Assembly: GCA_964651115.1 (NCBI GenBank)
Contig: CAZYXJ010000001.1
Location: forward strand, 106,509-170,508
DNA length: 64,000 nucleotides
Source of the DNA: an uncultured Candidatus Saccharibacteria bacterium
GTDB taxonomy: Bacteria > Patescibacteriota > Minisyncoccia > Phycocordibacterales > JACOZG01
Reading direction: 5' to 3'
This document shows, piece by piece, positions 13,443-57,567 of this stretch (the stretch's first letter is position 1; every line of letters begins with the position of its first letter). The notes under the pieces were generated by a model. That model was not told where the DNA came from. It was given only the letters and a program-made list of their open reading frames with translations, and ran no database searches. Made by a program: the position numbers and the translations under genes.

Positions 13443-14456
13443 CTAATTTTTGCTCATGACGCTTTTTTTGTAAACGTCGAGATGCTCAAGCGCGATACCC
13501 GTGCCTTTGGCCACGCAATAGAGAGCTTCTTCCGCCAAATGAGCCCGCACTCCCGTCCGCCGGAAAACTAATTCCGGCAGATTAGCCAACAAGGACGAAC
13601 CGCCAGTCATAATAATCCCATGATCAATAATGTCGGCCGCTAGCTCGGGAGGCGTATCTTGGAAAACAGTTTTAATCGCCCGAACAATTTCGCGCAACTC
13701 ACTATCGATGGCCCGCACAATCTCATTAGTCTTAATCTCCGCCGACCGAGGCAACCCCGTCAAAAAGTCCCGACCGCGAATGTCGTAAGCCAACTCCTCC
13801 TCCAGCGGCACCGCGGAGCCAATCTTCATTTTAACTTCTTCCGCCGTCTTATCACCGATAGCCAAATTGAAAGTTTTCTTGATGTAATCAGCGATGGCTT
13901 GATCAATTTTATTACCAGCACACTTAACTGACGTGGCCGCCACGATACCACCGAGCGAGATTACCGCCACGTCCGTCGTCCCGCCGCCGATATCACAAAT
14001 CATATAGCCCCGCGGTTCATAGATCGGGATGCCGGCACCAATCGCCGCCAAAATCGGTTCCTTAACCACGTACGCGTTTTTCGCGCCCGCGCGGATCGCG
14101 GCCTCAATCACCGCGCGCCGCTCCGTCGAGGTAATGCCCGCCGGGACCGAAATCAAAACATCGGGTTTGAGAAAATTATAACGCCCCAAAGCCTTGCCGA
14201 TATAATAGCGCAACATAATCTCCGTCACGCGATAATCAGCAATCACGCCATCTTTAAGGGGTCGATAAGCCGTGATCCCGTCGGGCGTCCGACCAATCAT
14301 CTCTTTGGCTTCCAAACCCACGGCTAAAACTTTTTTATCTAATTCCGAAACCGCCACCACTGATGGCTCATTAAGAACAATCCCTCGGCCCGGAACAAAA
14401 ACCAAGGTATTGGCCGTGCCCAAATCAATTCCCAACCGTCGGACGAAAAAAGCCAT
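13443..14456 (-). CDS. Second MreB/Mbl-like actin homolog
   Basis: 337 aa with GIDLGTANTLVF, DIGGGTTD and the full actin-fold ATPase. It is a distinct paralog of the mreB at 8216-9280. Confidence 0.85.
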   Translation of the reverse strand: MAFFVRRLGIDLGTANTLVFVPGRGIVLNEPSVVAVSELDKKVLAVGLEAKEMIGRTPDGITAYRPLKDGVIADYRVTEIMLRYYIGKALGRYNFLKPDVLISVPAGITSTERRAVIEAAIRAGAKNAYVVKEPILAAIGAGIPIYEPRGYMICDIGGGTTDVAVISLGGIVAATSVKCAGNKIDQAIADYIKKTFNLAIGDKTAEEVKMKIGSAVPLEEELAYDIRGRDFLTGLPRSAEIKTNEIVRAIDSELREIVRAIKTVFQDTPPELAADIIDHGIIMTGGSSLLANLPELVFRRTGVRAHLAEEALYCVAKGTGIALEHLDVYKKSVMSKN

Positions 14457-28394: not shown

Positions 28395-29075
28395 ATGAGA
28401 GCGCTTAACTTGGCGGGCGGCGAATATTATCATCTTTTAAATCGCGGAATGGCAAAGCGTCCTATCTTCCATGACAACGATGATTATCTGCGTTTTCTCT
28501 TTCTGATCACCCATCTGCAATCCGGAAAATCCTTCCTTAATATGTCCCGCGACATTAACCTGTTTAAAAAAACTTTTTCTCGACCTGATCAACACCGAGT
28601 GTTGATCAATCAAGAATACGCCAAAGCGGCCTCCCACCAACCACTAGTAAAGCTCCTGGCCTTTTGTCTAATGCCCAATCACTTTCATCTTTTAGTTTTA
28701 GCGATTCAAGATAATGGCATCGCTCGATATTTACAAAGAATCCTAAATGCCTACGCCAAGTATTATAATTTGAAATACCAACAAACCGGCCACCTGTTCC
28801 AGGGCCCATATCGAGCCGTTCACGTTTCTGACAACGAGCAACTACTCTACACCTCGGCTTACGTGCACAAAAATTGTTGCGAACTATTAGCCTGGCAAGA
28901 AAACTTTGCAGAATATCCTTGGTCTAGCTTGCAAGATTATTGCGTTTTTAATCGCTGGAGCACCCTACTCGATCCCCAGATCATTATTGATCAATTCGAT
29001 AACCCGACTGAATATTTGTTGTGGGTGAAAAACAACCCCGCTAAAACCGAAAATTTCGGGGTTGATTCTGATTAA
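28395..29075 (+). CDS. Y1 (HuH) transposase of the IS200-like/REP-associated tyrosine transposase family
   Basis: 226 aa with YHLLNRG...PIFHDNDDY, the HuH motif MPNHFHLL, GHLFQGPYRAV, catalytic-Tyr region LLYTSAYVHKN and YPWSSL. These match the COG1943-type Y1 transposases. It is flanked and interrupted by cognate palindromes. Confidence 0.8.
   Translation: MRALNLAGGEYYHLLNRGMAKRPIFHDNDDYLRFLFLITHLQSGKSFLNMSRDINLFKKTFSRPDQHRVLINQEYAKAASHQPLVKLLAFCLMPNHFHLLVLAIQDNGIARYLQRILNAYAKYYNLKYQQTGHLFQGPYRAVHVSDNEQLLYTSAYVHKNCCELLAWQENFAEYPWSSLQDYCVFNRWSTLLDPQIIIDQFDNPTEYLLWVKNNPAKTENFGVDSD
28586..28608. repeat. REP-like palindrome TGATCAACAC-CGA-GTGTTGATCA (copy 3, inside the transposase ORF)
   Basis: Identical 23-mer to copy 1 at 11053. 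It encodes RPDQHRVLINQ within a region that looks like an insertion relative to family members. Confidence 0.65.
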
Positions 29076-31959: not shown

Positions 31960-32493
31960 TTAATTAACGTCGAAGACGGCGGCCACTACTCGACCGTTAG
32001 TCTCTAGCAGACGATCTAATTTGTGGTTAAAAACGCGATCGCCATCATCTCGATAAAGAACAGCGGCATAAGTGCGTCCAGCTTGCGTCCCGCGCAAAAG
32101 TTCGACAGTCGCTAAACTACTAGCACCGGCATCAACTCGCTTGGCCCCGAGAATATTACCAAAACCCCCAGCCGACCAGTCGCGAATCGCCACCCAGCTA
32201 ACGGCATCCGCCTTAACTTCGTCAACAATCACTCGCGTTCCGGCTGCCTGGTTAGTTACTTCCACCAAAACGTCCGTGGCGGCTGAAGTTTCTTCATCCT
32301 GCATGACCGGCACACTGTCGCCACCCAAAATACCACCCGCCGTAGTAGTGGCCTTATTTTCGAGCAAGGTTCCAACCTTAACACCAGTAGCCGAAGACTT
32401 GCCTCCATAAGTATAGGCCCCCAAAGCAAAACCAATTATTAATCCTATAACTAAAGTTACAATCGTCCCCGTCGTAATTATTGACTTATCCAT
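31960..32493 (-). CDS. Hypothetical membrane-anchored extracytoplasmic protein
   Basis: 177 aa with an N-terminal TM and a Thr/Gly/Ala-rich beta region. Confidence 0.4.
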   Translation of the reverse strand: MDKSIITTGTIVTLVIGLIIGFALGAYTYGGKSSATGVKVGTLLENKATTTAGGILGGDSVPVMQDEETSAATDVLVEVTNQAAGTRVIVDEVKADAVSWVAIRDWSAGGFGNILGAKRVDAGASSLATVELLRGTQAGRTYAAVLYRDDGDRVFNHKLDRLLETNGRVVAAVFDVN

Positions 32494-32593
32494 AGCGATT
32501 ATCCGTAATTAACCTGGCCTTTATAATGATTGGAGTATAACATACTTCATCTAACCTTCACCTAATCCGACGTATACTTTAATCATAAAACTC

Positions 32594-33274
32594 ATGAAAG
32601 TATTGATTGTCGAGGATGATCGGGTCCTAGCCGAAGCCATTGCCTTTGGGCTCAACAAAGACGGCATGGAAACGACCCTAGAACACGATGGCGCAAAAGC
32701 CGTTGAGCATCCGCTGGCCGCCACGGCCGATCTTATAATTTTAGATCTCGGCTTGCCGACCCTGCCTGGATTAGAGGTCTGTCAACGCTGGCGAGCCCAA
32801 GGAATCACCACCCCCATCATCGTTCTAACGGCTAAAGATCAGTTGGACGACAAGGTAGCGGCCCTTAACGGCGGAGCAGATGATTATCTCACCAAACCCT
32901 TTTCTCTCGACGAATTGCGCGCTCGCCTCCAAGCCCTGACCCGTCGGGCGCGCAGTCTCTTGCCCGCCCGGCTAACTGCCGGACCACTCGTCCTTGATAC
33001 CGAAAAACGAACTCTCGAAGCGGATGGCCAACCAGTGCCCCTAACTCTAAAAGAATTCGCCATTGTGGAATATTTGATGCGTCACCCCCAATCAGTATTA
33101 ACTCGCGAGCAAATCCTTGATCATGTTTGGAATTATGACTTCGACTCGTTTAGTAATATCGTTGACGTCCACCTAAACAACATTCGAAAAAAAATCTCGG
33201 CCGTCACCTCAACTCCCATCCACTTAGAAACTGTTCGCGGAGTTGGTTACCGCATTAATACCAATCAACCATGA
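32594..33274 (+). CDS. OmpR-family response regulator (receiver + winged helix)
   Basis: 226 aa with receiver Asp pocket (DD...D in ILDLGLP), GADDYLTKPF, and a wHTH with RRAR and VRGVGYR. Confidence 0.85.
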   Translation: MKVLIVEDDRVLAEAIAFGLNKDGMETTLEHDGAKAVEHPLAATADLIILDLGLPTLPGLEVCQRWRAQGITTPIIVLTAKDQLDDKVAALNGGADDYLTKPFSLDELRARLQALTRRARSLLPARLTAGPLVLDTEKRTLEADGQPVPLTLKEFAIVEYLMRHPQSVLTREQILDHVWNYDFDSFSNIVDVHLNNIRKKISAVTSTPIHLETVRGVGYRINTNQP

Positions 33275-33471
33275 ACAACTACAATTTTATTCAAAAAGTG
33301 GAACATGATTTGCGCAACCACGTTGCCGTCATTAAACTGGCACTAGAAGCCCTCGCTAGCGGACCACTCTCGGCCGATCAAAAACGCTCCCGAGACGAAG
33401 CAGAATCTGCCCTCCAACGCTTAACCACTCAATTACACGACCTGCGGCTTGAGGCCGAAGCTAACCAATAA
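33271..33471 (+). CDS. Stand-alone HisKA/DHp-like 66-aa protein
   Basis: The H-box-like EHDLRNHVAVIKLALEAL resembles the HisKA phosphoacceptor helix (SHELRTPL...). No CA/ATPase domain is present. The ATGA start overlaps the stop of the upstream response regulator. Confidence 0.45.
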   Translation: MNNYNFIQKVEHDLRNHVAVIKLALEALASGPLSADQKRSRDEAESALQRLTTQLHDLRLEAEANQ

Positions 33472-33477
33472 CTGACC

Positions 33478-34170
33478 ATGAGAATTTTAGTCGCCGAAGA
33501 CGATAAAACTTTAGCCAACATTCTCAAAAAAACCCTAGAGAAGGAGGGTTATGCGGTGGACCTCTTGAGCGAAGGAGAAACGATTGAACGACGCCTAGAG
33601 ATCTCTCATGCGGATTACGATATTGTGATCTTGGATTTGGGTCTGCCGGGCCGAGACGGCTTAAGCATCTGTCGTGACACACGCGCTCACGGGATCAAAC
33701 TCCCCATCTTGGTTCTTTCGGCTCGTTCAGAACCAGAAATTAAAATTGCAGCCCTCGAAGCCGGCGCCGACGATTATCTCACTAAGCCTTTTGCCATCCA
33801 AGAACTTTTGGCGCGATTGCGCGCACTCCTGCGACGGCCAGCACCAGTCCAAATTGACGAGTTAACGGTCGGTGATCTCAAGCTTAATCGTCTCACTCGC
33901 ATCATTACTAGACAAAATCACCCCATTACCCTCACCGTCAAAGAATTTACGTTACTGGAATATCTAATGCGCCACCCCAACCAAATAATTAGTCGCCACC
34001 AGATCATTGATGAGCTCTGGGGTTACGACTTTGTTTCTGGTAGCAACATCGTTGACGTTCATATTAAAAATTTGCGCAAGAAAATTAGTTCCGGAAAACA
34101 AAAAGTACTAGAAACCGTGCGCGGCTTGGGTTATCGGCTCCTCGACCGAACTGGGCCGTTAAAAGAATAA
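33478..34170 (+). CDS. OmpR-family response regulator (second copy)
   Basis: 230 aa with the same architecture as 32594-33274. Confidence 0.85.
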   Translation: MRILVAEDDKTLANILKKTLEKEGYAVDLLSEGETIERRLEISHADYDIVILDLGLPGRDGLSICRDTRAHGIKLPILVLSARSEPEIKIAALEAGADDYLTKPFAIQELLARLRALLRRPAPVQIDELTVGDLKLNRLTRIITRQNHPITLTVKEFTLLEYLMRHPNQIISRHQIIDELWGYDFVSGSNIVDVHIKNLRKKISSGKQKVLETVRGLGYRLLDRTGPLKE

Positions 34171-34218: not shown

Positions 34219-34467
34219 ATGAAACCGAACAATATCCACAAACGAGGCTTTGCCTCAATGAGCGCCGAGCGACAGCGCGCCATCGCCGCTAAGGGTGGCA
34301 AAGCCGCTCATGCCAAAGGCACCGCTCACCAATTTTCCGCCGAAGAAGCTCGTAAAGCCGGAAAAAAGGGGGGCGAAGCTGTCAGTCGAGACCGCGTGCA
34401 CATGGCCGCCATCGGTCGGGTGGGTGGAAAAAAGAGTCGTCGCGGCAAAACCCGTCCCAAAATTTAA
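34219..34467 (+). CDS. KGG-repeat general stress protein (YciG-like)
   Basis: 82 aa; GGKAAHAKGTAHQFSAEEARKAGKKGG is a KGG-domain repeat. Confidence 0.6.
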   Translation: MKPNNIHKRGFASMSAERQRAIAAKGGKAAHAKGTAHQFSAEEARKAGKKGGEAVSRDRVHMAAIGRVGGKKSRRGKTRPKI

Positions 34468-34525: not shown

Positions 34526-34738
34526 CTACATGGACTCCTCGCTGTCGTCACTCATCCCGGCCGAGCTAGAGCGGCGACCAGCTTGGCCGCCCTTGCGACC
34601 AGCCTCTCGCGCCTCATCTGGAGTGAACTCATGAGCGGTCCCCCGCTCATGGGCGGCTTTGCCGCCGCGCGAGGCCACCTCGCGCCGTCGCTCCGGATCC
34701 ATTCCCGCAAACCCTCTCCGATTTTCGTTTTCTGCCAT
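34526..34738 (-). CDS. KGG-repeat general stress protein (YciG-like), paralog
   Basis: 70 aa; RGGKAAHERGTAHEFTPDEAREAGRKGG. Confidence 0.6.
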   Translation of the reverse strand: MAENENRRGFAGMDPERRREVASRGGKAAHERGTAHEFTPDEAREAGRKGGQAGRRSSSAGMSDDSEESM

Positions 34739-39260: not shown

Positions 39261-39333
39261 TCCGCGATAGCTCAGTTGGTAGAGCGCCTCGCTGTTAACG
39301 AGGATGTCCCAGGTTCGAGCCCTGGTCGCGGAG
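39261..39333 (+). tRNA. tRNA-Asn (anticodon GTT)
   Basis: A manual cloverleaf fits: acceptor tccgcga/tcgcgga, D-arm gctc-agttggt-agagc, anticodon arm cctcg-ctGTTaa-cgagg, variable loop atgtc, T-arm ccagg-ttcgagc-cctgg, discriminator G. There is a TATAAT 19 nt upstream. Confidence 0.85.
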
Positions 39334-40959
39334 CCTGACTGACAAAAGTGGCACATGATGCCACTTTTGTCGTATGTGGCCTGGCTTTTTAGAGGTTCGA
39401 GCGTGCTCTATTTCCTGCATAATAGCTTCTCGTGCTTTTATGAGGCTCAAAAAGAAAGAACTGTAAGAAAGCTGGATCTTTTTGTCTGAAATGGTGAGGT
39501 TCGAGCCAAGGCATGCGAGTATCGCTCTTTTGGTCTTTTCATCGCCATTTGCGTACCAAAGGTGGGCGTAGCAGGCAAAGTCAAAGGTTTGCTCTGAAAG
39601 TTCAGCCCATTGTTCTACAGCCTTATTCTTGATCTTCAACTCGTCCTCAAGAAGGCCCTTCTTTCTGAGTAGTTCAGACTTTAAGGACTGGTATTCCTGT
39701 TCGCCGATAACGGTTCGATTCTTGTTTGATGGTGCAGTAAAGTTAAGGGTCAAAGATTGCAGCTGCTGCGTTACTTCTTCACATTCCTTGTGCTTGGTCC
39801 TTATTGCGATTGAATCACTCTCAGCCTCATTCTTGCGGACCTCATGGACATGGCGAACCGCCCAGTCACGATACTCCTCTGAAATTCTTATATCTTTAAG
39901 GATCGCCCCGATCTGTAAGTGTAGTAGTTTTACTTCCACATGCTTTTCAGTACAGCCAGCGTCATATCTCTTTTTGGTGCAGTTGTAGTAAACGTAATGA
40001 TGGACGTTACCGTTCTTGCAACGCTTTACTTTGGCTTGGGCAGTGATGCTGCAACCACAGGTGGCACATTTCATAAGACCAGTAAAAGCAAACATCCTCT
40101 CTTCGTGTCGTGGGCGCGGTTGGTTGGTCCTACCCATAACCTTTTGTACCTGATCAAATTCTTCTTTGGTTACCATCGGCGCGTGCGCTCCTTTATTCCA
40201 ATTACCACTGTGGAGCGGAAACTCAAACCAGCCATAATAAAATGGGTTACCGAGGACTGCATAAATTGCTGATCGAGAAAGATGTTCACCGCCGATATTT
40301 CTACGTGGGACCGTTCGGAGATTCAACTGTTTTCTTGAAATATTCCAAATCTGGGCCATTGAATAATTGCCGGTAAGCGCAAGATCAAAGAGTCTTCGGA
40401 CCAACGGGAATCTATCAGGATCTTTTTCTAAGGTCTTGTAACCCTTTTGTTTATTGGGTGTGTTGAGATATCCAATCGGCGCACCGCTTGGCATCCAACC
40501 ATCTCTCACTTTCTTTTGCAGACCTCGCTTTACATTCACTGATAGGTCTCGAATAAACTGATTGGCCATGCCAAGTTCTACTTGCATCATGAGCACGTTG
40601 TCTGTTGGGTAATAGGTTCGACCGAAGGTAACGATTTGAGATACGGCACTCTGCTGCAACATCCAACTTATCTGGCCACCATCGACAGGATTACGGGCTA
40701 GGCGGTCCAGTTTCCAGCATAGGATGCCATTGGCTTCGCCTTTATAGATCCTCTCAAGCATTGAGTTGAATACCTTCCTACCTGGTTTCTTGGCTGATTG
40801 TGATTCTTCAAGGATATCCAGGATGTGTAAACCTTGATCCTTTGCAATCTTCAAAAGCTCGTCTTTCTGGGCATCTATGGACGCTGCCTGGCGATCTTCT
40901 GCCTCGCTGGATTTACGAGCATAGAGGAAGTATTTAATTGGTTGGTTTGTCTGGTTCAT
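39295..40959 (-). CDS. Large serine recombinase (integrase/resolvase family)
   Basis: 554 aa. The N-terminal catalytic domain has YARKSSEAEDRQAASIDAQ (nucleophile Ser region) and a recombinase domain, followed by a zinc ribbon (CATCGC...CTKKR) and a coiled-coil. The C-terminal ~25 codons read through the hairpin and tRNA 3-prime end on the opposite strand. Confidence 0.8.
   Translation of the reverse strand: MNQTNQPIKYFLYARKSSEAEDRQAASIDAQKDELLKIAKDQGLHILDILEESQSAKKPGRKVFNSMLERIYKGEANGILCWKLDRLARNPVDGGQISWMLQQSAVSQIVTFGRTYYPTDNVLMMQVELGMANQFIRDLSVNVKRGLQKKVRDGWMPSGAPIGYLNTPNKQKGYKTLEKDPDRFPLVRRLFDLALTGNYSMAQIWNISRKQLNLRTVPRRNIGGEHLSRSAIYAVLGNPFYYGWFEFPLHSGNWNKGAHAPMVTKEEFDQVQKVMGRTNQPRPRHEERMFAFTGLMKCATCGCSITAQAKVKRCKNGNVHHYVYYNCTKKRYDAGCTEKHVEVKLLHLQIGAILKDIRISEEYRDWAVRHVHEVRKNEAESDSIAIRTKHKECEEVTQQLQSLTLNFTAPSNKNRTVIGEQEYQSLKSELLRKKGLLEDELKIKNKAVEQWAELSEQTFDFACYAHLWYANGDEKTKRAILACLGSNLTISDKKIQLSYSSFFLSLIKAREAIMQEIEHARTSKKPGHIRQKWHHVPLLSVRLRDQGSNLGHPR
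39341..39371. other. Perfect 13-bp hairpin immediately 3-prime of tRNA-Asn
   Basis: gacaaaagtggca-catga-tgccacttttgtc. It is a possible tRNA terminator and/or recombination site, and lies inside the 3-prime end of the recombinase reading frame. Confidence 0.6.
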
Positions 40960-41878
40960 GGTTTATTTGTGTGTCAGGTATGTGGGTCTCATTTACTGGC
41001 TCTGCCCATTTTTCACCGTTTTTTAACGGTGGTTCCGTAGTATCTGATTGGATACTGCCGACTTCCCGTAAATTTCCCGCTATATCGGGAAAATTATCTG
41101 CGTTTTCTGTGGGTCTCACTACCTCACTTAAGGGTATCTTTCCTTCATAGGCTGTCTCAACGACATCATGCCCAGAAGGCTCTTGAATAGCAACTTGTTC
41201 CGGTAGCTGCCACTTATGCATTTTCCTCTTTAGAACATCTCCGATGCTAGTTAAAGAATTCGGGGATTTATTTATTTGGTTAGTTAGAGTATCTACGTTA
41301 ATACTACGGTTTCTACGCTTTCGGATACTACGGAGATGTATATCTGGATACTGCGCAACTGAATCTTTAAGTTTTAGACGCCCTTTAATATGGGCTATGC
41401 TTTTCCAAAAATCGACCGACTTAAAGTAGTACAGGTTCAGTGTTTTGAATCCGCTCTTTGTCTGGACCACACCAAGAATGCTGCACTCAACAAGAAGTCG
41501 GACCGCATTGGCTACATAGTTTCTGTTTTTCTCTCCGGTTAGGTCCTGGATGGTAGTCAGACTTGGCCACGCAACTTGTGTTTGCGTATTTCCATGCTTC
41601 AGAATGGCGCAGTAGACAAGTGTACAAATCTTTGGCAACTTTTCCATATAGCCATGCTCCACAAATTCGTTCTCTACGAAAAACCGAGTTGGTTTTCTCT
41701 TGCCGCGTAACAGGGACCGGTCAATCTGATTCTTCAGTTCCTCGATCTTCGCCTTGTGGTAGGCATGGGCTATCTCCACTTTGTTCTTCTTCGGGTCCAA
41801 CCACTCGAGGAAATACTTCTCGTTGTTGTTCATATTCTTTAAGCCACACCTTTTTGACAGGCCGATAGACAAGGTCAA
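40934..41878 (-). CDS. Hypothetical winged-helix DNA-binding protein (possible replication initiator)
   Basis: 314 aa with a central wHTH-like segment (WPSLTTIQDLTGEKNRNYVANAVRLLVECSILGVV). It sits downstream of the iteron-like repeat region. The start codon is uncertain, with several in-frame Met. Confidence 0.4.
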   Translation of the reverse strand: MTLSIGLSKRCGLKNMNNNEKYFLEWLDPKKNKVEIAHAYHKAKIEELKNQIDRSLLRGKRKPTRFFVENEFVEHGYMEKLPKICTLVYCAILKHGNTQTQVAWPSLTTIQDLTGEKNRNYVANAVRLLVECSILGVVQTKSGFKTLNLYYFKSVDFWKSIAHIKGRLKLKDSVAQYPDIHLRSIRKRRNRSINVDTLTNQINKSPNSLTSIGDVLKRKMHKWQLPEQVAIQEPSGHDVVETAYEGKIPLSEVVRPTENADNFPDIAGNLREVGSIQSDTTEPPLKNGEKWAEPVNETHIPDTQINHEPDKPTN

Positions 41879-42586: not shown

Positions 42587-45568
42587 TTACTTCTTCATTT
42601 TCTTAATCACATACTCGAATACGCGCTCTTGCACAAACTTCTTAAGCTCAGGACTCTGGTCTAACTTTTGATACAAGCTAAAGTGTTTATCGAGCACGCT
42701 GACGAGCTCATCTTGGAACAGCTGGTCGAATTTCAACTTCGCCGCATCCTTGCTGTTGTTCATGACTGAACCCTGAAGAACCTCGCTTTCAAGAAGTCGC
42801 TTACTTAGATCGTTGAGAATAACCCTGTCTCCATCATTGAAGTTTGTACCATACCGATCATTAACTTCTTTGATGATTCGTGACAAAGCGTCCCTTTCAT
42901 CTTCAGAAAGAGTCTTGGCATCACCACCACCCATCGGTTCGATAATACCTTCTGCATTTTCAAGCTGAAGATGCATCTCACCCTTCTTTTCTATTCTGTA
43001 TGTTTCCATGTCTATTGCTTGGAGTACTTCGTATGGCAATGGATTTTCTCTCTTTGGAAGCTTTCTAATCAAGTACTTCAAGAAGATAAATAACTTTTCT
43101 AATTGTGGATCTTCAAACGTCACAATCTGAGATATGAAAGCGTATTTTTTAAGGTAGTCGAAAGCTGTAGATTTGAAACCTTCCATTTCTTCTTCGGTAA
43201 GATTCTCATTGTTGATTCGAGAGACTACACTGTCAATGATGTGATTCAACTTGTCAGGAGTTGCTCGGGAGTAAAGTTCATCAATAAATCCATTCACTTC
43301 AAAGTCGGTGAAGAATTTAAAGCCTCGCACGTCGCGCTCAAGATCATGCAGGATATTTGGGTCAGTCGCCTCTGATAGGACCGTAGTTGTGTAATAAGGC
43401 TGGAAAGCTTCTTTGATGTCATCTGTTTGATTTACGAAATCTAGCACAAAGGTGTCGTCTTTTCCGTACGTAGTTCGGTTGAGACGAGACAAAGTCTGGA
43501 CCGCACTTACACCGCCAAGTTTCTTATCTACGTACATCACCGACAAGAGTGGCTGGTCAAATCCAGTCTGGAACTTCTCAGCTACAATCAAGAATTTATA
43601 ATCATCATTCTTAAATTCTTCAGCAGTTTGACTCTCTGGGACCTTATTCATCTGTCCTTCCGTATACTCAAGCTTAGTATCAACATCCTTAACTGTTCCC
43701 GAGAAAGCCACGAGAGCTTTATGCCCATATCCTTTTTCTTTGAGGTACTTATCAAACGCGATCTTATATCTGACCGCATGAAGTCGTGACTTGGTTACTA
43801 CCATAGCCTTTGCCTTTCCATTGATAAGTGAGGAAATCTTTTCTTCAAAGTGCTCCACCATAATAGCCACCTTCTTATCGATTGCATGTTCGTGTCGCTC
43901 GACATAGCCAACCATGAGTCGCTGGGCTTTCTTTTTATCGAACTCAGGGTCATCCTCAACTTTCTTCAAAAGCCCAAAGTAGGTTTCGTATGTTGTGTAG
44001 TTTTTGAGCACATCAAGAATAAACTTCTCTTCAATCGCTTGCTTCATTGAGTAAAGGGAGAAGGGGCCGAATTTACCAGTTAAAGGATCTTCAGTACCAA
44101 AGAGTTCAAGTGTTTTTTGCTTTGGAGTTGCAGTAAATGCAAAGAATGACAGATTTGGAGACGATACCTTTCGGGCTTTCATGCGTTCAACAATCTGATC
44201 TTCAATTGTTTTGAATAATTTCTCTTCTTCCTGGCTTTCTTTTTCAGCTTCATCGAGAGTGAGGACCTGGCGTAGATCGGCGGCTGATTCTCCTGATTGA
44301 GATGAGTGTGCCTCGTCAATAATGACAGCAAACTTTCTACCCTCAACTTTTTCTATGGCATCCACAATAACCGGAAACTTCTGCAAAGTTGTAGTGATAA
44401 TCTTTACACCCGACTCAAGGGACTCCTTGAGCTCTTTACCACCGTTTTCTACATGCTTAACCAGGCCAGTAACTTGGCTAAAGCTTTTAACTGTATCTGA
44501 AAGCTGTCTATCGAGTACACGTCGATCAGTTACAACTATCACGCCGTCAAAAACATTCTTTCCTTCAGTGTCGTGGAGCTCGGCCAATCGGTGTGCAGTC
44601 CAAGCGATAGTATTACTCTTTCCGGAACCAGCGCTGTGCTGGATTAGGTAGTTCTTACCTGAGCCATGTATCCTGGTATCCTCGACAATGCGTTTTACCG
44701 TCTCGAGCTGGTGATATCGAGGAAAGATAACTTTTTCTTCTTTACGCTTTTTACCATTCTTATCTTCCTTTTCTTCAGTCACTTCTTGTATGAAGTTTCC
44801 AATCAAATCAAAGATGCTATCTTTGGACCAGATTTCTTCCCAGAGATAGTGAGTCTTATATTTGCCCTTAGGTGCTTCAGGATTGCCTGACGACCCTTTA
44901 TTGCCCTTATTAAAGGGTAAGAAGTAGGTAGTGAGACCGGTGATACGGGTCGTCATATACGCCTGTTCTGTATCGAGCGCAAAGTGTGTGAGGCATCGCT
45001 TGAATGTTATAAGCTTCTCCTTTTGGTCGCGGTCCGTCTTGTACTGCGAAATGGCATTGATAACATTTTGGCCTGTGAACTGATTTTTGAGTTCAGAAGT
45101 AAACAGAGGGAGTCCATTCACAAAGATCACCATGTCTATGGAGTTCTCGTTTTTAGCGCTGTACTTTACCTGACGCATTACGCTCAAAATGTTCCCTGCG
45201 TAGTCTGCAAGGGTCTCAGGATTCTTGTCATTCTCTGGCTTGAAGTATGCAAGGCGGATTATGACACCTCGATCCTTTACTCCCTCCCTGAGCACACTGA
45301 GAAGACCACGAGAAAGAAGCTCTTCATCTAACCTAGCCAAGAATCTTTCAGCGACACTGTCTCCATATTGTTCAACAAGTTTTTCCCAATTATCTTTCTG
45401 GGTACTCTGAATAAACTCCAGGACCAGTTCAGTATCCATGCAGAGTTCCTTGTTGTATGAAGAATTAGAACGCTTTCGGTAGTTATGCAGACTTACAAGC
45501 TCCTGCTCGATAAATTCTTCAAATCCTGATTCTTTTGTATTGGTTTTTGTTGTCATGTTATTCGGCAT
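42587..45568 (-). CDS. hsdR: Type I restriction enzyme R subunit
   Basis: 993 aa with an N-terminal nuclease region, SF2 motor motifs (HSAGSGKS Walker A, VIIDEAHSSQ DEAH box) and a C-terminal helical domain. Confidence 0.9.
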   Translation of the reverse strand: MPNNMTTKTNTKESGFEEFIEQELVSLHNYRKRSNSSYNKELCMDTELVLEFIQSTQKDNWEKLVEQYGDSVAERFLARLDEELLSRGLLSVLREGVKDRGVIIRLAYFKPENDKNPETLADYAGNILSVMRQVKYSAKNENSIDMVIFVNGLPLFTSELKNQFTGQNVINAISQYKTDRDQKEKLITFKRCLTHFALDTEQAYMTTRITGLTTYFLPFNKGNKGSSGNPEAPKGKYKTHYLWEEIWSKDSIFDLIGNFIQEVTEEKEDKNGKKRKEEKVIFPRYHQLETVKRIVEDTRIHGSGKNYLIQHSAGSGKSNTIAWTAHRLAELHDTEGKNVFDGVIVVTDRRVLDRQLSDTVKSFSQVTGLVKHVENGGKELKESLESGVKIITTTLQKFPVIVDAIEKVEGRKFAVIIDEAHSSQSGESAADLRQVLTLDEAEKESQEEEKLFKTIEDQIVERMKARKVSSPNLSFFAFTATPKQKTLELFGTEDPLTGKFGPFSLYSMKQAIEEKFILDVLKNYTTYETYFGLLKKVEDDPEFDKKKAQRLMVGYVERHEHAIDKKVAIMVEHFEEKISSLINGKAKAMVVTKSRLHAVRYKIAFDKYLKEKGYGHKALVAFSGTVKDVDTKLEYTEGQMNKVPESQTAEEFKNDDYKFLIVAEKFQTGFDQPLLSVMYVDKKLGGVSAVQTLSRLNRTTYGKDDTFVLDFVNQTDDIKEAFQPYYTTTVLSEATDPNILHDLERDVRGFKFFTDFEVNGFIDELYSRATPDKLNHIIDSVVSRINNENLTEEEMEGFKSTAFDYLKKYAFISQIVTFEDPQLEKLFIFLKYLIRKLPKRENPLPYEVLQAIDMETYRIEKKGEMHLQLENAEGIIEPMGGGDAKTLSEDERDALSRIIKEVNDRYGTNFNDGDRVILNDLSKRLLESEVLQGSVMNNSKDAAKLKFDQLFQDELVSVLDKHFSLYQKLDQSPELKKFVQERVFEYVIKKMKK

Positions 45569-46803: not shown

Positions 46804-48108
46804 TTATATTTTAATTTTCCCTGTTACAACGTTTGATATCAGTGAGAACTTAAACTCCTTAAGACTCAAAATTGTTTTTTCGACCTTCTTTATGGCCTCG
46901 TCAAAAAGAGGGATCTTTTTGTTCAAAACGTTAAGTATCTTTTCTTGCTCCTTTATTGGAGGTAGTGCAATTAGAAAATCCTTATACTTCTCAGCACTCA
47001 CATTTTGTATTGTTGATCGAATAAATATTGAATTAATCCATTTCCAGTAGTAGTCAGACTTTGTTATGTATTCCAAATATTCAGAACTGATCTTCTTTTG
47101 ATTAACGTTCATTCTTATCAAGTATCCGGCATAGCAGCAGGGACCCCACTCTTTTTTATATCTAAAAGATTTTCCAACCGTACCACCTGTTCTTGCAAAC
47201 AAAATATCACCCTCTTCCAGAAGATATGGCTTAGCAAGTTCAAGATCCAAAGACTTAAACGTGTCTTCTCTTAAATTACCCGCTTCATCAATATCGCTGA
47301 TTCTTATGAATCTAGGTTGAGATTTATCATTGTGTAATCCCGCTTCATTAGCTCCGTACTGAAGTGGTTTCTTTGCAAGGAATTTCATTTTTTGAATTTC
47401 CCATCCTTCTGGTATTTCTTTAAAGCTGCTTATTTTGGTTTTAATAAAATTCGCTTTCGAATCAGTCCCTTTTGTTACAGCAAGGTTAATAGCAGCTAAT
47501 CGTTTCTCGTTTAATAAACCGATTTGCTTTTGTTTTTTCTCTACAATTTCATCTAGACAGACAGTTTTTTTATCAAGATACACTGCAATCTTTTTTTGCT
47601 GCTCTGGACTAGGAATACTTATCATTATTCTCTTCATTTCACTCTCTCGGGTGGTCCAGAGATCATCAACAATGCCTCGTCCCCAGCGGTAAAATTCTTC
47701 TGAAAAAAGTTTACTCCTAAACAAGTAATGGAAATACTTTGAATCGAATGATTGGTCTCTTTTTCTTAGAACATTGTAAACAAGAGAAACACCACCTTCG
47801 TACTCAGACATCCCAACAGCACCCTTTCTGTCTGATCGACCGTTGATAGCAATATCACCAACTTTTACGAGCTTGCGCAAACTGCCCTCTGCAACTTTAG
47901 CTGCATTATCAATTTGCTTTTTAATTCCATCGTAAGTAACCGACAATGGTTCGTGCGTAACTTCTGTGACTTTTTGATTTGGAAAATCAAAAATAGAGAC
48001 AACTTTCGACACACCCCATTCTTTAGGAACTTTACCCAACCACTCAACGCCTGAATCTTTGTATTCAGGATACTTCTCATATTTCTTTGTGAGTTTGAGT
48101 GTTTGCAT
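46804..48108 (-). CDS. hsdS: Type I restriction-modification specificity subunit
   Basis: 434 aa with two target-recognition-domain halves separated by conserved helical spacers, the typical HsdS layout. Confidence 0.8.
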   Translation of the reverse strand: MQTLKLTKKYEKYPEYKDSGVEWLGKVPKEWGVSKVVSIFDFPNQKVTEVTHEPLSVTYDGIKKQIDNAAKVAEGSLRKLVKVGDIAINGRSDRKGAVGMSEYEGGVSLVYNVLRKRDQSFDSKYFHYLFRSKLFSEEFYRWGRGIVDDLWTTRESEMKRIMISIPSPEQQKKIAVYLDKKTVCLDEIVEKKQKQIGLLNEKRLAAINLAVTKGTDSKANFIKTKISSFKEIPEGWEIQKMKFLAKKPLQYGANEAGLHNDKSQPRFIRISDIDEAGNLREDTFKSLDLELAKPYLLEEGDILFARTGGTVGKSFRYKKEWGPCCYAGYLIRMNVNQKKISSEYLEYITKSDYYWKWINSIFIRSTIQNVSAEKYKDFLIALPPIKEQEKILNVLNKKIPLFDEAIKKVEKTILSLKEFKFSLISNVVTGKIKI

Positions 48109-48109
48109 A

Positions 48110-49294
48110 TTATTTATCCTCGCTCTCTTTTGGCTCAGGCAACTCCAAAGACTCGATCTTCTGCAGTTGGATAACTCCGCTCAAGTCACCATAGATACCG
48201 ACTGTATTTTTGATGACCTTCTGTATCTGCTTTTCTTTTTCGGACCAAGACTTTTCAAAATAAAGACGCTCTTTATCCAAGGAAGTCTTCATGCTTGAAA
48301 ACGTCTCTACGATGACCTCAATCTTTTGTTTGAATTCATTGCCAGACAGATAAGCATAGAGAATCTCCATCTTTTCATTTTTACCCACAGACATAGACTT
48401 TTCGCGACACACAAGCTCAAGGGTATTTCGTAATGCCGTTGCTATCGAGATTGCCAGTTTAATATCACAAACCCAGACTCCTTCGCGTTGAGCTATGCCT
48501 TCCAAACCACCAGGCAATACGGAAGATACGATAACTGCAATGTCGGCCTTAACACTTCGCTGATCTTCTTTCAGTTTCTTAATCCAACTGTCGGTCCAAG
48601 CCTTGGTTTTTTTTGATTCCCAGATAATCTTTCCGCATTCAACACCAGCTTTAGTCTTAACAGTTTGTATAACATCCGCACCGGTAACACCCTTAGGGAC
48701 CGGAGAAATATCATCGTAGATAAATTCTGCCTTGAGAAGTTCCTCAAGGGCTATCTCTTGGACCTCGCCTTGAGTCTGTTGTGATCCCTGCTCAAGCTTT
48801 CGGGCTAGTTCATCCTTCGCTTTTGTGGCATCGGAAAGCTGCTTATTGAGCTGATCTATTTTTGCCTGTTGTGCCTCTGTCGCTTTCTTTGAAGCCTCTT
48901 CTTCAATTGTCTTTCTTTCTGCATCAAGCTGACGCGCCTTTTCTAGTTCAAAAGCATCCTTTTCATCTTTGAGCTTTTGAGTGGCCTTACGCAACTCAAG
49001 CTCATTCTTGTTAGCTTCTTTAAGCTTGAGGTCCTTATCAGCTAGCTGTTCCTCAAGGAACTTCTTGTCAGAGGCTGCTTCTTTTTCTACTCGTTCCCTT
49101 ATTTGCTTTTTCAACAGTTCTTCTATTTCTTGCAACTCTTTCTTGTGTTCCTTCTCTTTTGCTGCGCGTGTAGCTTTTTCTTGTTCTTCAAAATCCTTTC
49201 TGATTTTACTTTCAAGCTGATGCGTTAAAACTTCATCAATCGAGATTGATTTTCCGCAATGAGGACAACTAATATTTCTTGTATCGTTAGTCAT
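48110..49294 (-). CDS. Zinc-ribbon plus long coiled-coil protein (DUF2130-like) embedded between hsdM and hsdS
   Basis: 394 aa with an N-terminal CPHCGKSISIDE (CxxC), a ~170-aa Lys/Glu-rich coiled-coil and a conserved-looking C-terminal globular domain. Proteins of this layout are recurrently found inside type I R-M loci. Confidence 0.5.
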   Translation of the reverse strand: MTNDTRNISCPHCGKSISIDEVLTHQLESKIRKDFEEQEKATRAAKEKEHKKELQEIEELLKKQIRERVEKEAASDKKFLEEQLADKDLKLKEANKNELELRKATQKLKDEKDAFELEKARQLDAERKTIEEEASKKATEAQQAKIDQLNKQLSDATKAKDELARKLEQGSQQTQGEVQEIALEELLKAEFIYDDISPVPKGVTGADVIQTVKTKAGVECGKIIWESKKTKAWTDSWIKKLKEDQRSVKADIAVIVSSVLPGGLEGIAQREGVWVCDIKLAISIATALRNTLELVCREKSMSVGKNEKMEILYAYLSGNEFKQKIEVIVETFSSMKTSLDKERLYFEKSWSEKEKQIQKVIKNTVGIYGDLSGVIQLQKIESLELPEPKESEDK

Positions 49295-49298
49295 ATGT

Positions 49299-51281
49299 TT
49301 AGAGTTGCTTTAAAAGAGTGAGTAATTCATTCTCGACTTTTTCTATGTCGGACTCGATGGCCTCGAGGCTGCGTGGAGCTTCGTATTTGTAGAAATATCG
49401 CGTGAATGGGATCTCGTATCCAACCACACCAATTTTTCCATCTTTATGATCCTGGACCGACTCGTTTATCCAAGCATCAGGGACATACGGTTTCACTTCT
49501 TTGTTGAAATAATCTTTGATATCCACCTCGTATGGTACGTTTTCAAAATCCCGCAACTCACCGTCTGGTTCAGGGTTACCATCCTTATCAGTACAAATTG
49601 TTGCTTCCTCGTCACGCACACCGACTATCGATATAAGTTTCTTATACTGACCTGCTGTGAACTTAACGGCGACGTATTGTTTAAGTCCCGCTTCGATTCT
49701 TTCATCTAGAACTTTTTTGCTTGTTATAATTTGATTCTCAAAGGATTCAATAAAATCTTTCATGCCATTCTTGTTGTCTTTGATGTCAAAAGCAACAAGG
49801 AGTTCTTTTACCTTTTCTGGGGTGAAATCAAACTTAAGACGGAGAGATCGCTCGATCGTGATCTGTCGATAAGCAAAGTCGGTAGTCTTGAAGATCTTTG
49901 AATGTTCGCTTTCATCAAACTTCTCGTAGATGTCCAATATCTTTTTCTTTGATTCCGCGTCAATCTCGTGACGCTTGCTGCCGAGACTCTTGCGAGTCTT
50001 CTTAAAGAAGGCGCGAGCGTCGATAAGCTGGACCTTACCTTTTCTTTCTTTTGACTTTCTGTTCGTCACAAACCAGAGATACGTATTGATACCGGTGTTA
50101 TAGAAAAGTTGATCTGGCAAAGCCACAATCCCTTCAAGTAAATCTTTTTCAAGAATCCAACGGCGTATTTCGCTTTCGCCGCTTCCTGCGTCGCCTGTAA
50201 ATAGAGGGGACCCATTATGAACGATCGCAATACGTGAGCCGCCATCTTTTTCAGATTTCATCTTTGATATGAGATGCTGCAAGAACAAGAGCTGTCCGTC
50301 GGAAATACGTGGAGTACCTGCACCGAATCGGCCTGCGTATCCGCGAGACGCTTCGCGCTCTACGGCATCCTTATCTTTCTTCCAATCAACTCCGTAGGGT
50401 GGATTTGAGAGCCCATAATCGAATACTTCCGCAAAGAATTGGTCGTTAGCGAGCGTACTTGCCTTTGAATGGTCTTTCTCACCACCTCGAATAAGATCAG
50501 GGTCATCACCTTTGATAAGCATATCTGACTTTGCCATAGCGTAGGTCACTGAGTTGAGTTCCTGGCCGTAAAGGAAAATGTCGGCTTCTTTGTTTATGTT
50601 TTCTAGAATGTAATCCTTGGCAACAGAAAGCATTCCGCCCGTACCGCAGGCAGGGTCGTAAATCTTTTTGATAACATGAGGCTTCTTAAGATCCTTTTTA
50701 TCAGGTGAAAAGAGCATCTCAGTCATGAGTCCGATCACATCTCGTGGTGTGTAGTGTTCTCCGGCGGTCTCATTAGACATTTCAGAAAATTTTCGGAGAA
50801 GTTCTTCAAAAACATGACCCATCTGATAGTTATCTACTTTCGAAGGATGCAGGTCTACCTTGTTAAGCTCCTGGATCACATAAAACAACAGATCGCCACC
50901 TTCAAGACGTTCAAGTTGTTTGCTGAAATCAAACTTTTCAAAAATGTCCTGGATGTTTTTGCTGTAGCCATTTATATATTGCTTGAAATTCTTTGCGAGA
51001 TGCTTAGGTTCGCCAAGGATAGTCTTAAAATCGTAGTCGGAGATATTGTAAAAGGCAGTACCCGATGTCTTCTTGAGAATCGGATCGAGATCGTTTACCT
51101 TGCCTTTGTACTCGTTATATTTCTCGAGGACCGATGCCTTAGTATCAGCAAGAATGGAATCCAGGCGCTTTAAAACCACCAGAGGTAATATTACGTCCTG
51201 GTATTCGTGCTGTTTCCAACCGCCGCGCAATATGTCGGCGATGCTCCATATCATTGATGTTTTTTGGTTGAAGTTTTCCAT
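49299..51281 (-). CDS. hsdM: Type I restriction-modification DNA methyltransferase subunit M
   Basis: 660 aa with an HsdM N-domain, SAM-binding DPACGTGGML and the catalytic NPPYG motif. Confidence 0.9.
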   Translation of the reverse strand: MENFNQKTSMIWSIADILRGGWKQHEYQDVILPLVVLKRLDSILADTKASVLEKYNEYKGKVNDLDPILKKTSGTAFYNISDYDFKTILGEPKHLAKNFKQYINGYSKNIQDIFEKFDFSKQLERLEGGDLLFYVIQELNKVDLHPSKVDNYQMGHVFEELLRKFSEMSNETAGEHYTPRDVIGLMTEMLFSPDKKDLKKPHVIKKIYDPACGTGGMLSVAKDYILENINKEADIFLYGQELNSVTYAMAKSDMLIKGDDPDLIRGGEKDHSKASTLANDQFFAEVFDYGLSNPPYGVDWKKDKDAVEREASRGYAGRFGAGTPRISDGQLLFLQHLISKMKSEKDGGSRIAIVHNGSPLFTGDAGSGESEIRRWILEKDLLEGIVALPDQLFYNTGINTYLWFVTNRKSKERKGKVQLIDARAFFKKTRKSLGSKRHEIDAESKKKILDIYEKFDESEHSKIFKTTDFAYRQITIERSLRLKFDFTPEKVKELLVAFDIKDNKNGMKDFIESFENQIITSKKVLDERIEAGLKQYVAVKFTAGQYKKLISIVGVRDEEATICTDKDGNPEPDGELRDFENVPYEVDIKDYFNKEVKPYVPDAWINESVQDHKDGKIGVVGYEIPFTRYFYKYEAPRSLEAIESDIEKVENELLTLLKQL

Positions 51282-51289
51282 GGCGTTGG

Positions 51290-52432
51290 TTATTTATTAA
51301 AGAGATTAATGTATTCCGTTAGGTAGAAGATTCGATCTTTCTTGAGCCCCGTCTTTTCTGAGAACAAACCAAGTTTCTGAAAATCCATTGCGATCGCTGA
51401 TGCGGTCGGGAATGTTACCGACAGCATTGATTCAATATCCCTAATCGTCACAACCGGCTGTGAGAACAAGCAGCGCAAAAGTTCCTTACCAAGCTTTTGG
51501 CGCTTGATGCCCATACCTTTTTCGATTGTTGTTTCGTACTTCTTTCGGAGATCAATAATCTTTTCGAGTGTTTGTCGAGAATTCTTTGCTGTCTCCAATA
51601 CTCCAGTGAGAAAGAAACGTAGCCAGTGTTCGATGTCGTGTGTCTCGCGGACACGTGAAAGACCATCGTAATATTGCGGACGATGTTTTTCGAAGAAATC
51701 TGAAATGTAGAGAGTTGGTTTTTGAAGAATACCAAGGCTTACCAAGTGGAGCGTGATCATAAGTCGACCAATACGTCCGTTACCATCGAGGAATGGGTGG
51801 ATCGTTTCAAACTGATAGTGTGAGATAGCTATCTTGATGAGATCCGGAATATCTACTTCCTTGTTGTGCCAGAATCTTTCCAGGTCACTCAGTAACTCGC
51901 TGACCTCTTCGTAGTGAGGCGGAATGAACACTGCATCTTTGAGAGTTGCACCACCGATCCAGTTTTGGCTGCGGCGAACTTCTCCTGGCAACTTTGTATA
52001 CCCACGCACGCTTGAAAGAAGGACCTTGTGTGTATCCTTTACGAGACGCATTGAGAGCGGTAGTTTTTCAAGCTCAGCGATCGAGTAGTTAATCGCTTTG
52101 ACGTAATTCTGAACTTCTTCCCAGTCGTTTCTTTTTTCGGGATCTATTTCAAGCTCGGGCAAGAGTGCCTCATCGAGCTTTGTTTGTGTACCCTCAATTT
52201 TGCTTGAAGTGGTAGCTTCTTTTGCGATGTGCATTTTTATGAAAAAATCCACGTCAGGGACCAACTTTGAAAATGCGTTGAGCTCGCCGAGATATCTCAT
52301 GGCATCGGCAAGAAGCACATCGATGCGCTTGTCTGTCCATTCAAAATCCTTGTTCACTAAAGACGGCTGAAAGCTCTTGTAGCCATCGTGCTGCTTATGG
52401 GTTCCTGACTTGTATTTTTCTGTCATGCACAC
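51290..52432 (-). CDS. Fic/DOC family protein (putative AMPylator) with C-terminal winged helix
   Basis: 380 aa with the Fic motif [12 protein letters not shown]. It is co-oriented with hsdM and lies 8 nt upstream. Confidence 0.85.
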
Positions 52433-53538: not shown

Positions 53539-53963
53539 AACTCAACCTCAAAAGGATACATTCCCATTCCGCATGATCCTTGGAGTGTGCCAAGTTTGCC
53601 GCTACCAATATCAATATCTGTAGATCCTGTCTGAGGTAATAATTTTGATATGTTCATGCTTGGTATTCGGACCGATGACGAGCAGTCGAAGGTTCCCTTT
53701 GTATTGAAGCGAATGATAGTTGGTATACCTGCCTTAGCAATACTCTTGCGAGGTTGATAACCACCTTTGGCATTTATCTCTATGATTTGTTTTCCGTCTA
53801 CAATGGTGACGTTGTTTGCGTTTACTACTTGTCCGGTATCACCACCGTTTCTTGTAAACATGAAAGCACCTCCGATGAGGATTACTGCCACAATGCTTGA
53901 AATAATAGTTGCTTTCATAATTAGAATTATACTAGAAGTTAAATATTGGCGGTATGACTCCAA
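53529..53963 (-). CDS. Hypothetical membrane-anchored Cys/Met-containing protein, possibly metal-binding
   Basis: 144 aa with an N-terminal TM and a C-terminal beta region with CSSS...SCGMGMY. It is the last gene of the copper cluster. Confidence 0.35.
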   Translation of the reverse strand: MESYRQYLTSSIILIMKATIISSIVAVILIGGAFMFTRNGGDTGQVVNANNVTIVDGKQIIEINAKGGYQPRKSIAKAGIPTIIRFNTKGTFDCSSSVRIPSMNISKLLPQTGSTDIDIGSGKLGTLQGSCGMGMYPFEVEFQS

Positions 53964-57296: not shown

Positions 57297-57300
57297 ATTT

Positions 57301-57567
57301 TTATTTGCGCTTGAGCTTATAAACCTTAAGAATCTCATCGACAGCTTTCTTTTCACTGCCATGCTTCATTTGGTGAACGACATGTGTAGAAAGATGATTT
57401 TCAAGGACCAGGTTCTCAATCCCAGTGAGTGCTTCCTTAATAGCTGATGCTTGAGTAATAATATCGATACAATACTTCTCATCCTCCACCATCTTTTGGA
57501 GTCCTCTAATCTGTCCCTCAACAATTTTTAATCGGCGAATAGCTTTTGTTTTTATGTCTTGTCTCAT
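57301..57567 (-). CDS. csoR: CsoR/RcnR-family copper-sensing repressor
   Basis: 88 aa. It has a ..YCIDI...H...H.. arrangement of metal ligands and a coiled-coil fold signature. Confidence 0.85.
   Translation of the reverse strand: MRQDIKTKAIRRLKIVEGQIRGLQKMVEDEKYCIDIITQASAIKEALTGIENLVLENHLSTHVVHQMKHGSEKKAVDEILKVYKLKRK

Follow-up and report, generated by a model that had tools for sequence, protein, structure and literature searches.

In this work, we describe an operon in a 64,000-nucleotide stretch of DNA from an uncultured Candidatus Saccharibacteria bacterium (hereafter the window, meaning the whole stretch that was analysed), in which the genes for two OmpR/PhoB-type response regulators, RR1 and RR2, enclose a gene for a protein of only 66 amino acids. 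This small protein corresponds to the dimerisation and histidine-phosphotransfer (DHp) domain of a histidine kinase, and lacks the ATP-binding (CA) domain. We are highly confident that the open reading frame (ORF) is a real gene, held under selection and derived from a kinase. As to its function, we give an even chance to the view, drawn by analogy with characterized DHp domains, that the protein may serve as a kinase-less partner of both regulators, acting as a phosphatase and/or as a histidine shuttle between RR1 and RR2. The three genes are arranged as follows:

32594..33274, plus strand: RR1, OmpR/PhoB-type response regulator, receiver and winged helix, 226 amino acids
33271..33471, plus strand: small DHp-only ORF, HisKA hairpin with phospho-acceptor His12, 66 amino acids
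33478..34170, plus strand: RR2, OmpR/PhoB-type response regulator paralogous to RR1, 230 amino acids

The ATG of the small ORF overlaps the TGA of RR1 (ATGA), and RR2 starts 6 nt past the small-ORF TAA; these junctions coincide exactly with those given in an earlier sequence-only reading of the same DNA. In the window the DHp ORF and RR2 happen to share a reading frame, with the TAA and two codons between them. In one of the related loci, which are denoted here by L numbers, the spacer is 7 nt long and the frames differ (L001): the shared frame was therefore taken as a coincidence, and a readthrough fusion of DHp and RR2 is unlikely as a conserved feature.

The 66-residue protein is a DHp domain

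When compared with Pfam, the 66-residue protein matches HisKA (PF00512) with 37.4 bits, above the gathering cut-off of 26.9 (E = 2.7e-9), the alignment covering positions 4-61 of the 66 in the profile; its 68-residue homologue in L011 scores 58.3 bits. A profile of the protein and its relatives, searched against profiles of PDB structures, matches the DHp domain of EnvZ (1JOY, E = 4e-9), as well as GacS/RetS, VicK and HK853. The AlphaFold2 model of the monomer is a two-helix hairpin (helices 3-28 and 35-64, mean pLDDT 90.4, pTM 0.70). Its top Foldseek matches are the DHp domains of RetS, CpxA, ERS1, EnvZ and GacS, with TM scores of 0.65-0.85 and E-values that are not significant, the fold being too small.

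The phospho-acceptor histidine lies within the motif H12-D-L-R-N16, which reads H-E-L-R-T in L011; both fit the HisKA motif definition, H-[E/D]-x-x-[T/N] (PMC3510030). His12 never varies among the DHp-only proteins, all of which retain H-[D/E]-x-x-[N/T], within alignments whose overall identity is only about 33%. The HisKA-like H-box helix, noticed in the sequence-only reading, thus holds in profile-based tests, and an assignment of the ORF as a generic helical protein is ruled out by both the Pfam and the PDB profile results.

Nothing else was recognized in the protein. It gives no Pfam match to sensor, transmembrane or HATPase_c families, as the same reading had maintained, and helix 1 begins already at residue 3. 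Other phosphotransfer families fit no better: there is no match to Hpt (PF01627) even at E <= 10, and that to Pfam SPOB_a is insignificant (E = 0.42, 10.7 bits versus a cut-off of 28.1). By canonical standards the protein is not a sensor kinase, having neither a CA domain nor an input domain.

Purifying selection on the small ORF

Rates of substitution were compared pairwise among the window, L001 and L009. For the small ORF, dN/dS is 0.084, 0.076 and 0.031, with dS between 0.87 and 1.56; these ratios are about the same as those of the flanking regulators, 0.036-0.048 for RR1 and 0.037-0.043 for RR2. Differences between the window and L001 fall mostly on third codon positions (13, 5 and 29 at positions 1, 2 and 3, respectively) and are unevenly spread along the protein, affecting 2 of the first 23 residues, which form the H-box helix, versus 12 of the remaining 43. 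The ORF keeps its length as well as its start and stop, and neither an internal stop nor an indel is found in four lineages, in the deepest of which RR2 is 67-69% identical to that of the window. Conservation of length, together with dN/dS values of 0.03-0.08, supports a retained function.

No CA domain accompanies the DHp gene within the window

Lacking a CA domain, the 66-residue protein cannot autophosphorylate. CA domains were sought by several routes. Neither the CA domains of HK853 and EnvZ, used as phmmer queries against the six frames of the 64-kb window, nor a CA hidden Markov model (HMM) including the ancestral-type kinase described below, run on the same six frames, gave a match (for the HMM, nothing below E = 1, the positive control scoring 1.4e-81). 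None of ten window ORFs that had not been assigned by eye matches Pfam HATPase_c. A tblastn search with the whole ancestral-type kinase revealed no debris of PAS or CA domains, whether in the window or in the DHp-only loci of its relatives, and no CA domain is present in the 9-20 kb around the DHp gene in three related lineages. The sequence-only reading had reported that no kinase gene is adjacent to the operon; by the six-frame searches, this can be extended to the absence of any CA domain within the 64-kb window.

The same reading had considered that a sequencing-error frameshift might sever the small ORF from a CA domain. The six-frame and tblastn searches found no such remnant downstream; since RR2 begins 6 nt after the small ORF, there is no room for one, and the arrangement, independently assembled in nine contigs from different samples, is not an artefact of assembly or frameshift. 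An explanation by frameshift or sequencing error was accordingly rejected.

Locus states in relatives and origin from a full kinase

Relatives were gathered through homologues of RR2, and their contigs were then read for the content of the slot between the two regulators. Three states were found:

State 1, full kinase: L014 (GCA_964591715.1), L015 and L016; RR1, a PAS-PAS-HisKA-HATPase_c kinase of 476-487 amino acids, RR2; KGG and queA nearby downstream
State 2, DHp only: the window and L003 (identical); L001/L002/L004; L009/L010; L011/L012/L013; HisKA-only ORF of 66 amino acids, 68 in the L011 group
State 3, no DHp: L017/L018 (GCA_964567425.1) and L021; RR1, then RR2 after 5-6 nt; flanks BacA, DUF167-like, DUF7282, KGG, KGG

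In the L014 kinase, Pfam recognizes HATPase_c (5.8e-30) and two PAS domains. The DHp-only state is represented by four lineages, that of the window included, on nine independent contigs, and its loci share the upstream synteny BacA, DUF5654, DUF167-like and DUF7282. The loci of the third state (L017 4318-5687, L021 3311-4687) carry RR1 and RR2 with neither a kinase nor a DHp gene, and all phospho-acceptor residues are intact in both regulators; helix alpha-1 of the L017 RR1 (LAEALVASLTTDN) is more diverged than in other RR1s. L022 holds an orphan RR2-like gene.

In a joint neighbour-joining tree RR1s and RR2s fall into separate groups, the RR1 clade having 98% bootstrap, which implies that duplication of the regulator predates all these lineages. 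Within the same tree the four DHp-only lineages group by their RR2s with 80% bootstrap and the RR-RR lineages with 100%, while the full-kinase lineages lie outside, with weak support.

Over 51 residues, the 68-residue L011 protein shares 47% identity with the DHp region of the L014 kinase (residues 260-310; E = 3e-12). The window protein is more diverged from it (E = 1e-3), and the alignment is colinear. Because a full kinase fills the same slot between orthologous regulators, and because the L011 protein is so similar to its DHp, the small gene is best regarded as a kinase remnant; few genomes stand behind this inference, but they make a strong case, from comparison of sequence and position, for its descent from the DHp of a PAS-PAS-HisKA-HATPase_c kinase. 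The sequence-only reading had offered either a minimal module or a freshly decayed kinase. Descent from a kinase stands, in view of the full kinase in L014-L016; the freshness of the decay does not, since length is conserved in four lineages, dN/dS is 0.03-0.08 and no PAS or CA debris is left, and a minimal module is the favoured alternative.

According to the scenario that we propose, a full soluble kinase would ancestrally have been located between the two OmpR-type regulators, presumably serving both, and separate deletions, in one Saccharibacteria-like clade, would have stripped it of its two PAS sensors and of the CA domain.

In some relatives, the RR2 orthologue adjoins genes for polysaccharide metabolism: a polysaccharide deacetylase and a chitin/cellulose-synthase-like GT2 in L011 (5679-9529) and L022 (4949-8687), and GH8 and GT2 in L015 (8731-10690). 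There are hints here that the ancestral system may regulate an exopolysaccharide or envelope locus.

Attempts to enlarge the sample gave little. A scan of contigs of species-representative genomes returned only one relative, already known, and a scan of metagenome contigs with RR2 returned only regulators of 37-48% identity, dominated by the generic DDYLTKPF pattern, and hence no census of operon states.

The two response regulators

Both regulators feature the two expected domains, with Pfam E-values of 1.3e-26 (Response_reg) and 4.2e-27 (Trans_reg_C) for RR1, and of 2.6e-27 and 3.3e-28 for RR2; they are 48% identical over 224 amino acids and are thus paralogous OmpR-type proteins, as first read from the sequence. 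Among NCBIfam models the nearest are RppA, PhoB and MtrA, RppA being the best with scores of 204 and 228 versus a cut-off of 250. As all equivalog scores remain below their cut-offs, RR1 and RR2 are to be regarded as OmpR/PhoB-family members without a named orthologue.

The phospho-acceptor residues are complete in RR1 (D8, D9, D51, T79, Y98 and K101) and, in its own numbering, in RR2 (D8, D9, D53, S81, Y100 and K103). The set D, D/E, D, T/S, Y, K is retained in every copy of RR1 and RR2, in all three locus states. Retention of all phospho-acceptor and switch residues indicates that phosphorylation still matters for these regulators.

Upstream of the operon lies a short repeated element:

32545..32565, plus strand: tandem direct repeat CTTCATCTAAC / CTTCACCTAA, 11-bp period, ending 29 nt 5' of the RR1 ATG

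It is followed by a -10-like TATACT at 32573-32578. An 11-bp direct-repeat geometry is typical of OmpR/PhoB-type binding sites, and from its sequence the repeat may be a candidate OmpR-type regulator box, through which the operon could be autoregulated. The repeat is the sole tandem of its pattern in the window, the pattern having been derived from the same site; it is kept in L001 and L009, and one recognizable unit is found in L017 and L021. A generic scan for promoters and terminators yielded nothing above shuffled sequences and did not call the direct-repeat region.

Possible roles of the DHp-only protein

In the mechanism that we favour, the DHp hairpin would dimerise into a four-helix bundle, still dock RR1 and RR2, and act on their phospho-aspartates. 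Two options, alone or combined, may be envisaged. The protein could be a constitutive phosphatase of the phosphorylated regulators, working through the conserved Asn/Thr at His+4, and it could be a reversible His shuttle, equilibrating phosphoryl groups between RR1 and RR2. In either case, phosphoryl groups would enter from elsewhere, from a small-molecule donor such as acetyl phosphate, or from a kinase encoded outside the window. Studies of HisKA kinases provide a basis for the phosphatase option: T/N at His+4 is specifically needed by the phosphatase reaction and the acidic residue at His+1 by the kinase reaction, and the DHp domains of EnvZ and NtrB are reported to be active as phosphatases even when isolated (PMC3510030). 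The shuttle option is suggested only by the gene order RR1-DHp-RR2 and by the intact Asp sites.

Several observations weigh against a role of this kind. The CA domain greatly enhances the phosphatase activity of DHp domains (PMC3510030), and DHp-only EnvZ had no detectable phosphatase activity in mammalian cells (PMC8971529). The Pro following T/N, which matters for phosphatase activity in CrdS (PMC3510030), is replaced by His (HDLRNH) in the clade of the window, and is kept in L011. A pure phosphatase role does not explain why the acidic residue at His+1 has been retained. Sister lineages (L017/L018 and L021) have no DHp at all, with the phospho-sites of their regulators intact; some genomes can thus do without the DHp protein, and taken together the loci give the impression of stepwise reduction.

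Separated DHp and CA domains of EnvZ complement each other in vitro, and the small gene could likewise be one half of a split kinase, His12 being phosphorylated in trans by a CA protein or a further kinase whose gene lies elsewhere in the genome, and the phosphate passing on to RR1 and RR2. The system would then continue to be a kinase pathway, its sensor and ATPase residing on a second polypeptide. Such an arrangement would account for the strict conservation of both His and the acidic D/E at His+1, the latter being needed only for kinase activity (PMC3510030). It is unlikely, however, given that the halves of known split systems are adjacent and that the searches reported above, in the window and in the three related lineages, revealed no CA domain. 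We regard as similarly improbable a non-catalytic regulator that would act by binding only, either sequestering RR1 and RR2 (or keeping them together as a heteromeric complex) or inhibiting another kinase by DHp heterodimerisation, in the manner of RetS and GacS. The RetS-GacS DHp co-complex (7N0E) is indeed among the best PDB profile and fold matches, and catalytically dead EnvZ variants reduced OmpR output via sequestration in mammalian cells (PMC8971529); pure binding, however, leaves unexplained the invariance of His12 and of N/T at His+4 in proteins that are otherwise only about 33% identical, and the H-box helix is under the strongest constraint. No partner kinase is known.

A third explanation would deny the protein any function. 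The ORF could be a remnant heading for deletion, too little time having elapsed for its loss, or its DNA could serve only to space the two regulator genes or to couple their translation. The three locus states form a reductive series, from a full kinase through DHp only to nothing, in a host lineage whose genome is reduced, and the ATGA overlap suggests translational coupling, which might itself be selected. This explanation is nonetheless very improbable, and the pattern of substitutions largely refutes it: synonymous sites are close to saturation and dN/dS is 0.03-0.08, no stops or indels have accumulated in four lineages, and the HisKA score exceeds the gathering threshold in both the window (37 bits) and L011 (58 bits). 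Nor is a spacer of 200 nt needed, since in the RR-RR lineages the two genes are 5-6 nt apart.

The kinase-less partner of both regulators can also be formulated in a more ambitious way, which we consider less likely than not: the free-standing dimer of 66-residue DHp hairpins would be a complete signalling enzyme, a shared phosphatase and bidirectional His shuttle for regulators charged by metabolism, in a reduced genome poor in kinases.

Comparison with known systems and other HisKA-only ORFs

In size and fold the protein resembles "domain A" of EnvZ and the DHp of NtrB, which comprise about 67 residues and feature a HisKA hairpin with a phospho-acceptor His in H-[E/D]-x-x-[T/N]. Those, however, are laboratory fragments of full kinases, while the 66-residue protein is the product of a natural gene under selection. 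On its own, the EnvZ DHp has weak activity, which one heterologous system failed to reproduce (PMC8971529).

Spo0B of Bacillus and ChpT of Caulobacter provide another parallel, as kinase-derived proteins with a His-bearing, DHp-like hairpin that are unable to use ATP. They shuttle phosphate between two receiver proteins, and the small gene described here sits between two genes containing receivers. In Spo0B and ChpT the hairpin is followed by a degenerate, CA-like alpha/beta domain at the C-terminus; in contrast, the 66-residue protein ends at helix 2, with no C-terminal domain, and the proteins encoded at its sides are two full transcription factors rather than a single-domain receiver and an output regulator.

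In Mycobacterium tuberculosis, Rv0600c/Rv0601c-TcrA is a natural split kinase, in which the DHp/His and the ATP-binding parts are separate. The CA-bearing partner is adjacent there, whereas none is present within 64 kb here. In one paper, Rv0600c and Rv0601c are described only as two sensor kinases that share one operon with one response regulator (PMC3544749).

The RetS-GacS pair of Pseudomonas, whose complex 7N0E is the best structural and profile match, shows a DHp hairpin used as a protein-protein signalling module. The target of RetS, itself a large, kinase-like hybrid protein, is however another kinase, while the neighbours of the 66-residue gene are response regulators, and no partner kinase is known. 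Finally, the protein would be included among the "incomplete histidine kinases" (iHKs), a P2CS class for proteins in which one of HisKA and HATPase_c is missing (bioRxiv 10.64898/2026.02.27.708494). This class is a bookkeeping category, while for the gene described here the origin has been traced, synteny is conserved and purifying selection has been measured.

HisKA-only ORFs are not rare: a profile search identified many of them, 66-123 amino acids long, in metagenomes. Pieces of frameshifted kinases are common among such short hits, and at least one, P0126 (L019), from an assembly of 1.3x coverage, was discarded as such. An independent, genuine-looking family of HisKA-only ORFs of 66 amino acids (MAHLAHELRTPLTSILGFSEILLSQEE...; L020 1470-1670), found in soil and other metagenomes, includes P0169, P0170, P0175, P0179 and P0196; its five sequence variants are conserved in length, and the gene adjoins one of acetyltransferase type and is not linked to a response regulator. 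Genes for free-standing DHp proteins may have had more than one origin. An HMM search of 1.84 billion representatives with a two-sequence profile, a query too short for a database of this size, returned only P0002 and an unrelated HisKA-only protein of 102 amino acids, P0003, whose context is also not linked to a response regulator.

In a literature search of incomplete coverage we found neither a description of a natural, conserved DHp-only protein nor a paper on two-component signalling in Saccharibacteria.

Neighbouring genes and other features of the window

The membrane protein and the KGG stress proteins that had been read at the two sides of the operon were both recovered, the former as a DUF7282 protein with a hydrophobic segment:

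31960..32493, minus strand: DUF7282 protein with N-terminal hydrophobic anchor, divergent from the operon (Pfam DUF7282, 7.7e-11)
34219-34467, plus strand, and 34526-34738, minus strand: convergent pair of KGG-repeat genes of general-stress type (Pfam KGG, 2.7e-10 and 7.6e-11)

By synteny, the DUF7282 gene is a conserved neighbour of the operon in both DHp-only and RR-RR lineages, and a KGG gene is located 3' of RR2 in all three operon states. The DUF7282 gene is a possible member of the regulon, and so are the KGG genes. Beyond DUF7282, the upstream side continues with DUF167, DUF5654 and UppP/BacA, while the downstream order is two KGG genes, queA, a small membrane protein and a VanY-type peptidase.

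Farther downstream, from about 39300 to 60000, the window contains an island of low GC content (0.37-0.47, versus 0.51-0.57 in the backbone), which is probably an integrated mobile element. Its genes include:

39295-40959, minus strand: large serine recombinase, at the start of the island
40934-41878, minus strand: helix-turn-helix (HTH) protein
42587-45568, 46804-48108 and 49299-51281: hsdR, hsdS and hsdM, respectively, of a type I restriction-modification system
48110-49294: DUF2130
51290-52432: Fic
53932-54963: DsbD_2/HMA membrane protein
54969-57362: heavy-metal P-type ATPase

At the equivalent place in L001, after GH18 and CsrA genes, a serine recombinase is also found. A further mobile sequence lies on the other side of the operon:

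28395-29075, plus strand: IS200-like Y1 transposase ORF (E = 2.3e-9), between enolase and phosphoglycerate mutase

This ORF looks recently inserted, since the enolase and phosphoglycerate mutase genes are directly adjacent in L001. Two genes for MreB-like actin homologues (8216-9280 and 13443-14456, both on the minus strand), recognized from their translations only, lie within 6 kb of each other, beside mreC and a PBP2-like gene, which were likewise read from translations only.

Implications

The docking surface of histidine kinases, as well as their phosphatase and phosphotransfer chemistry, is known to reside in the DHp domain. Whether this domain can act alone in cells has been debated on the basis of engineered fragments only, and their results conflict. 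The locus described here offers a natural DHp-only test case, with a traceable ancestry, measurable purifying selection and two obvious neighbouring substrates, in a system of three small soluble proteins. HisKA-only ORFs are usually dismissed as fragments, and the 66-residue case suggests that some of them may be real genes. In its three states, the locus also shows the stepwise erosion of a two-component system in ultra-small symbiotic genomes.

If the DHp dimer indeed proves to be a complete signalling enzyme, a former sensor pathway would have been turned into a metabolic read-out, via a phosphodonor such as acetyl phosphate, and evolution would have followed a route from a bifunctional kinase, through a DHp-only phosphatase or shuttle, to loss. 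The 66-residue protein would then be the smallest known natural "transmitter" of a two-component system.

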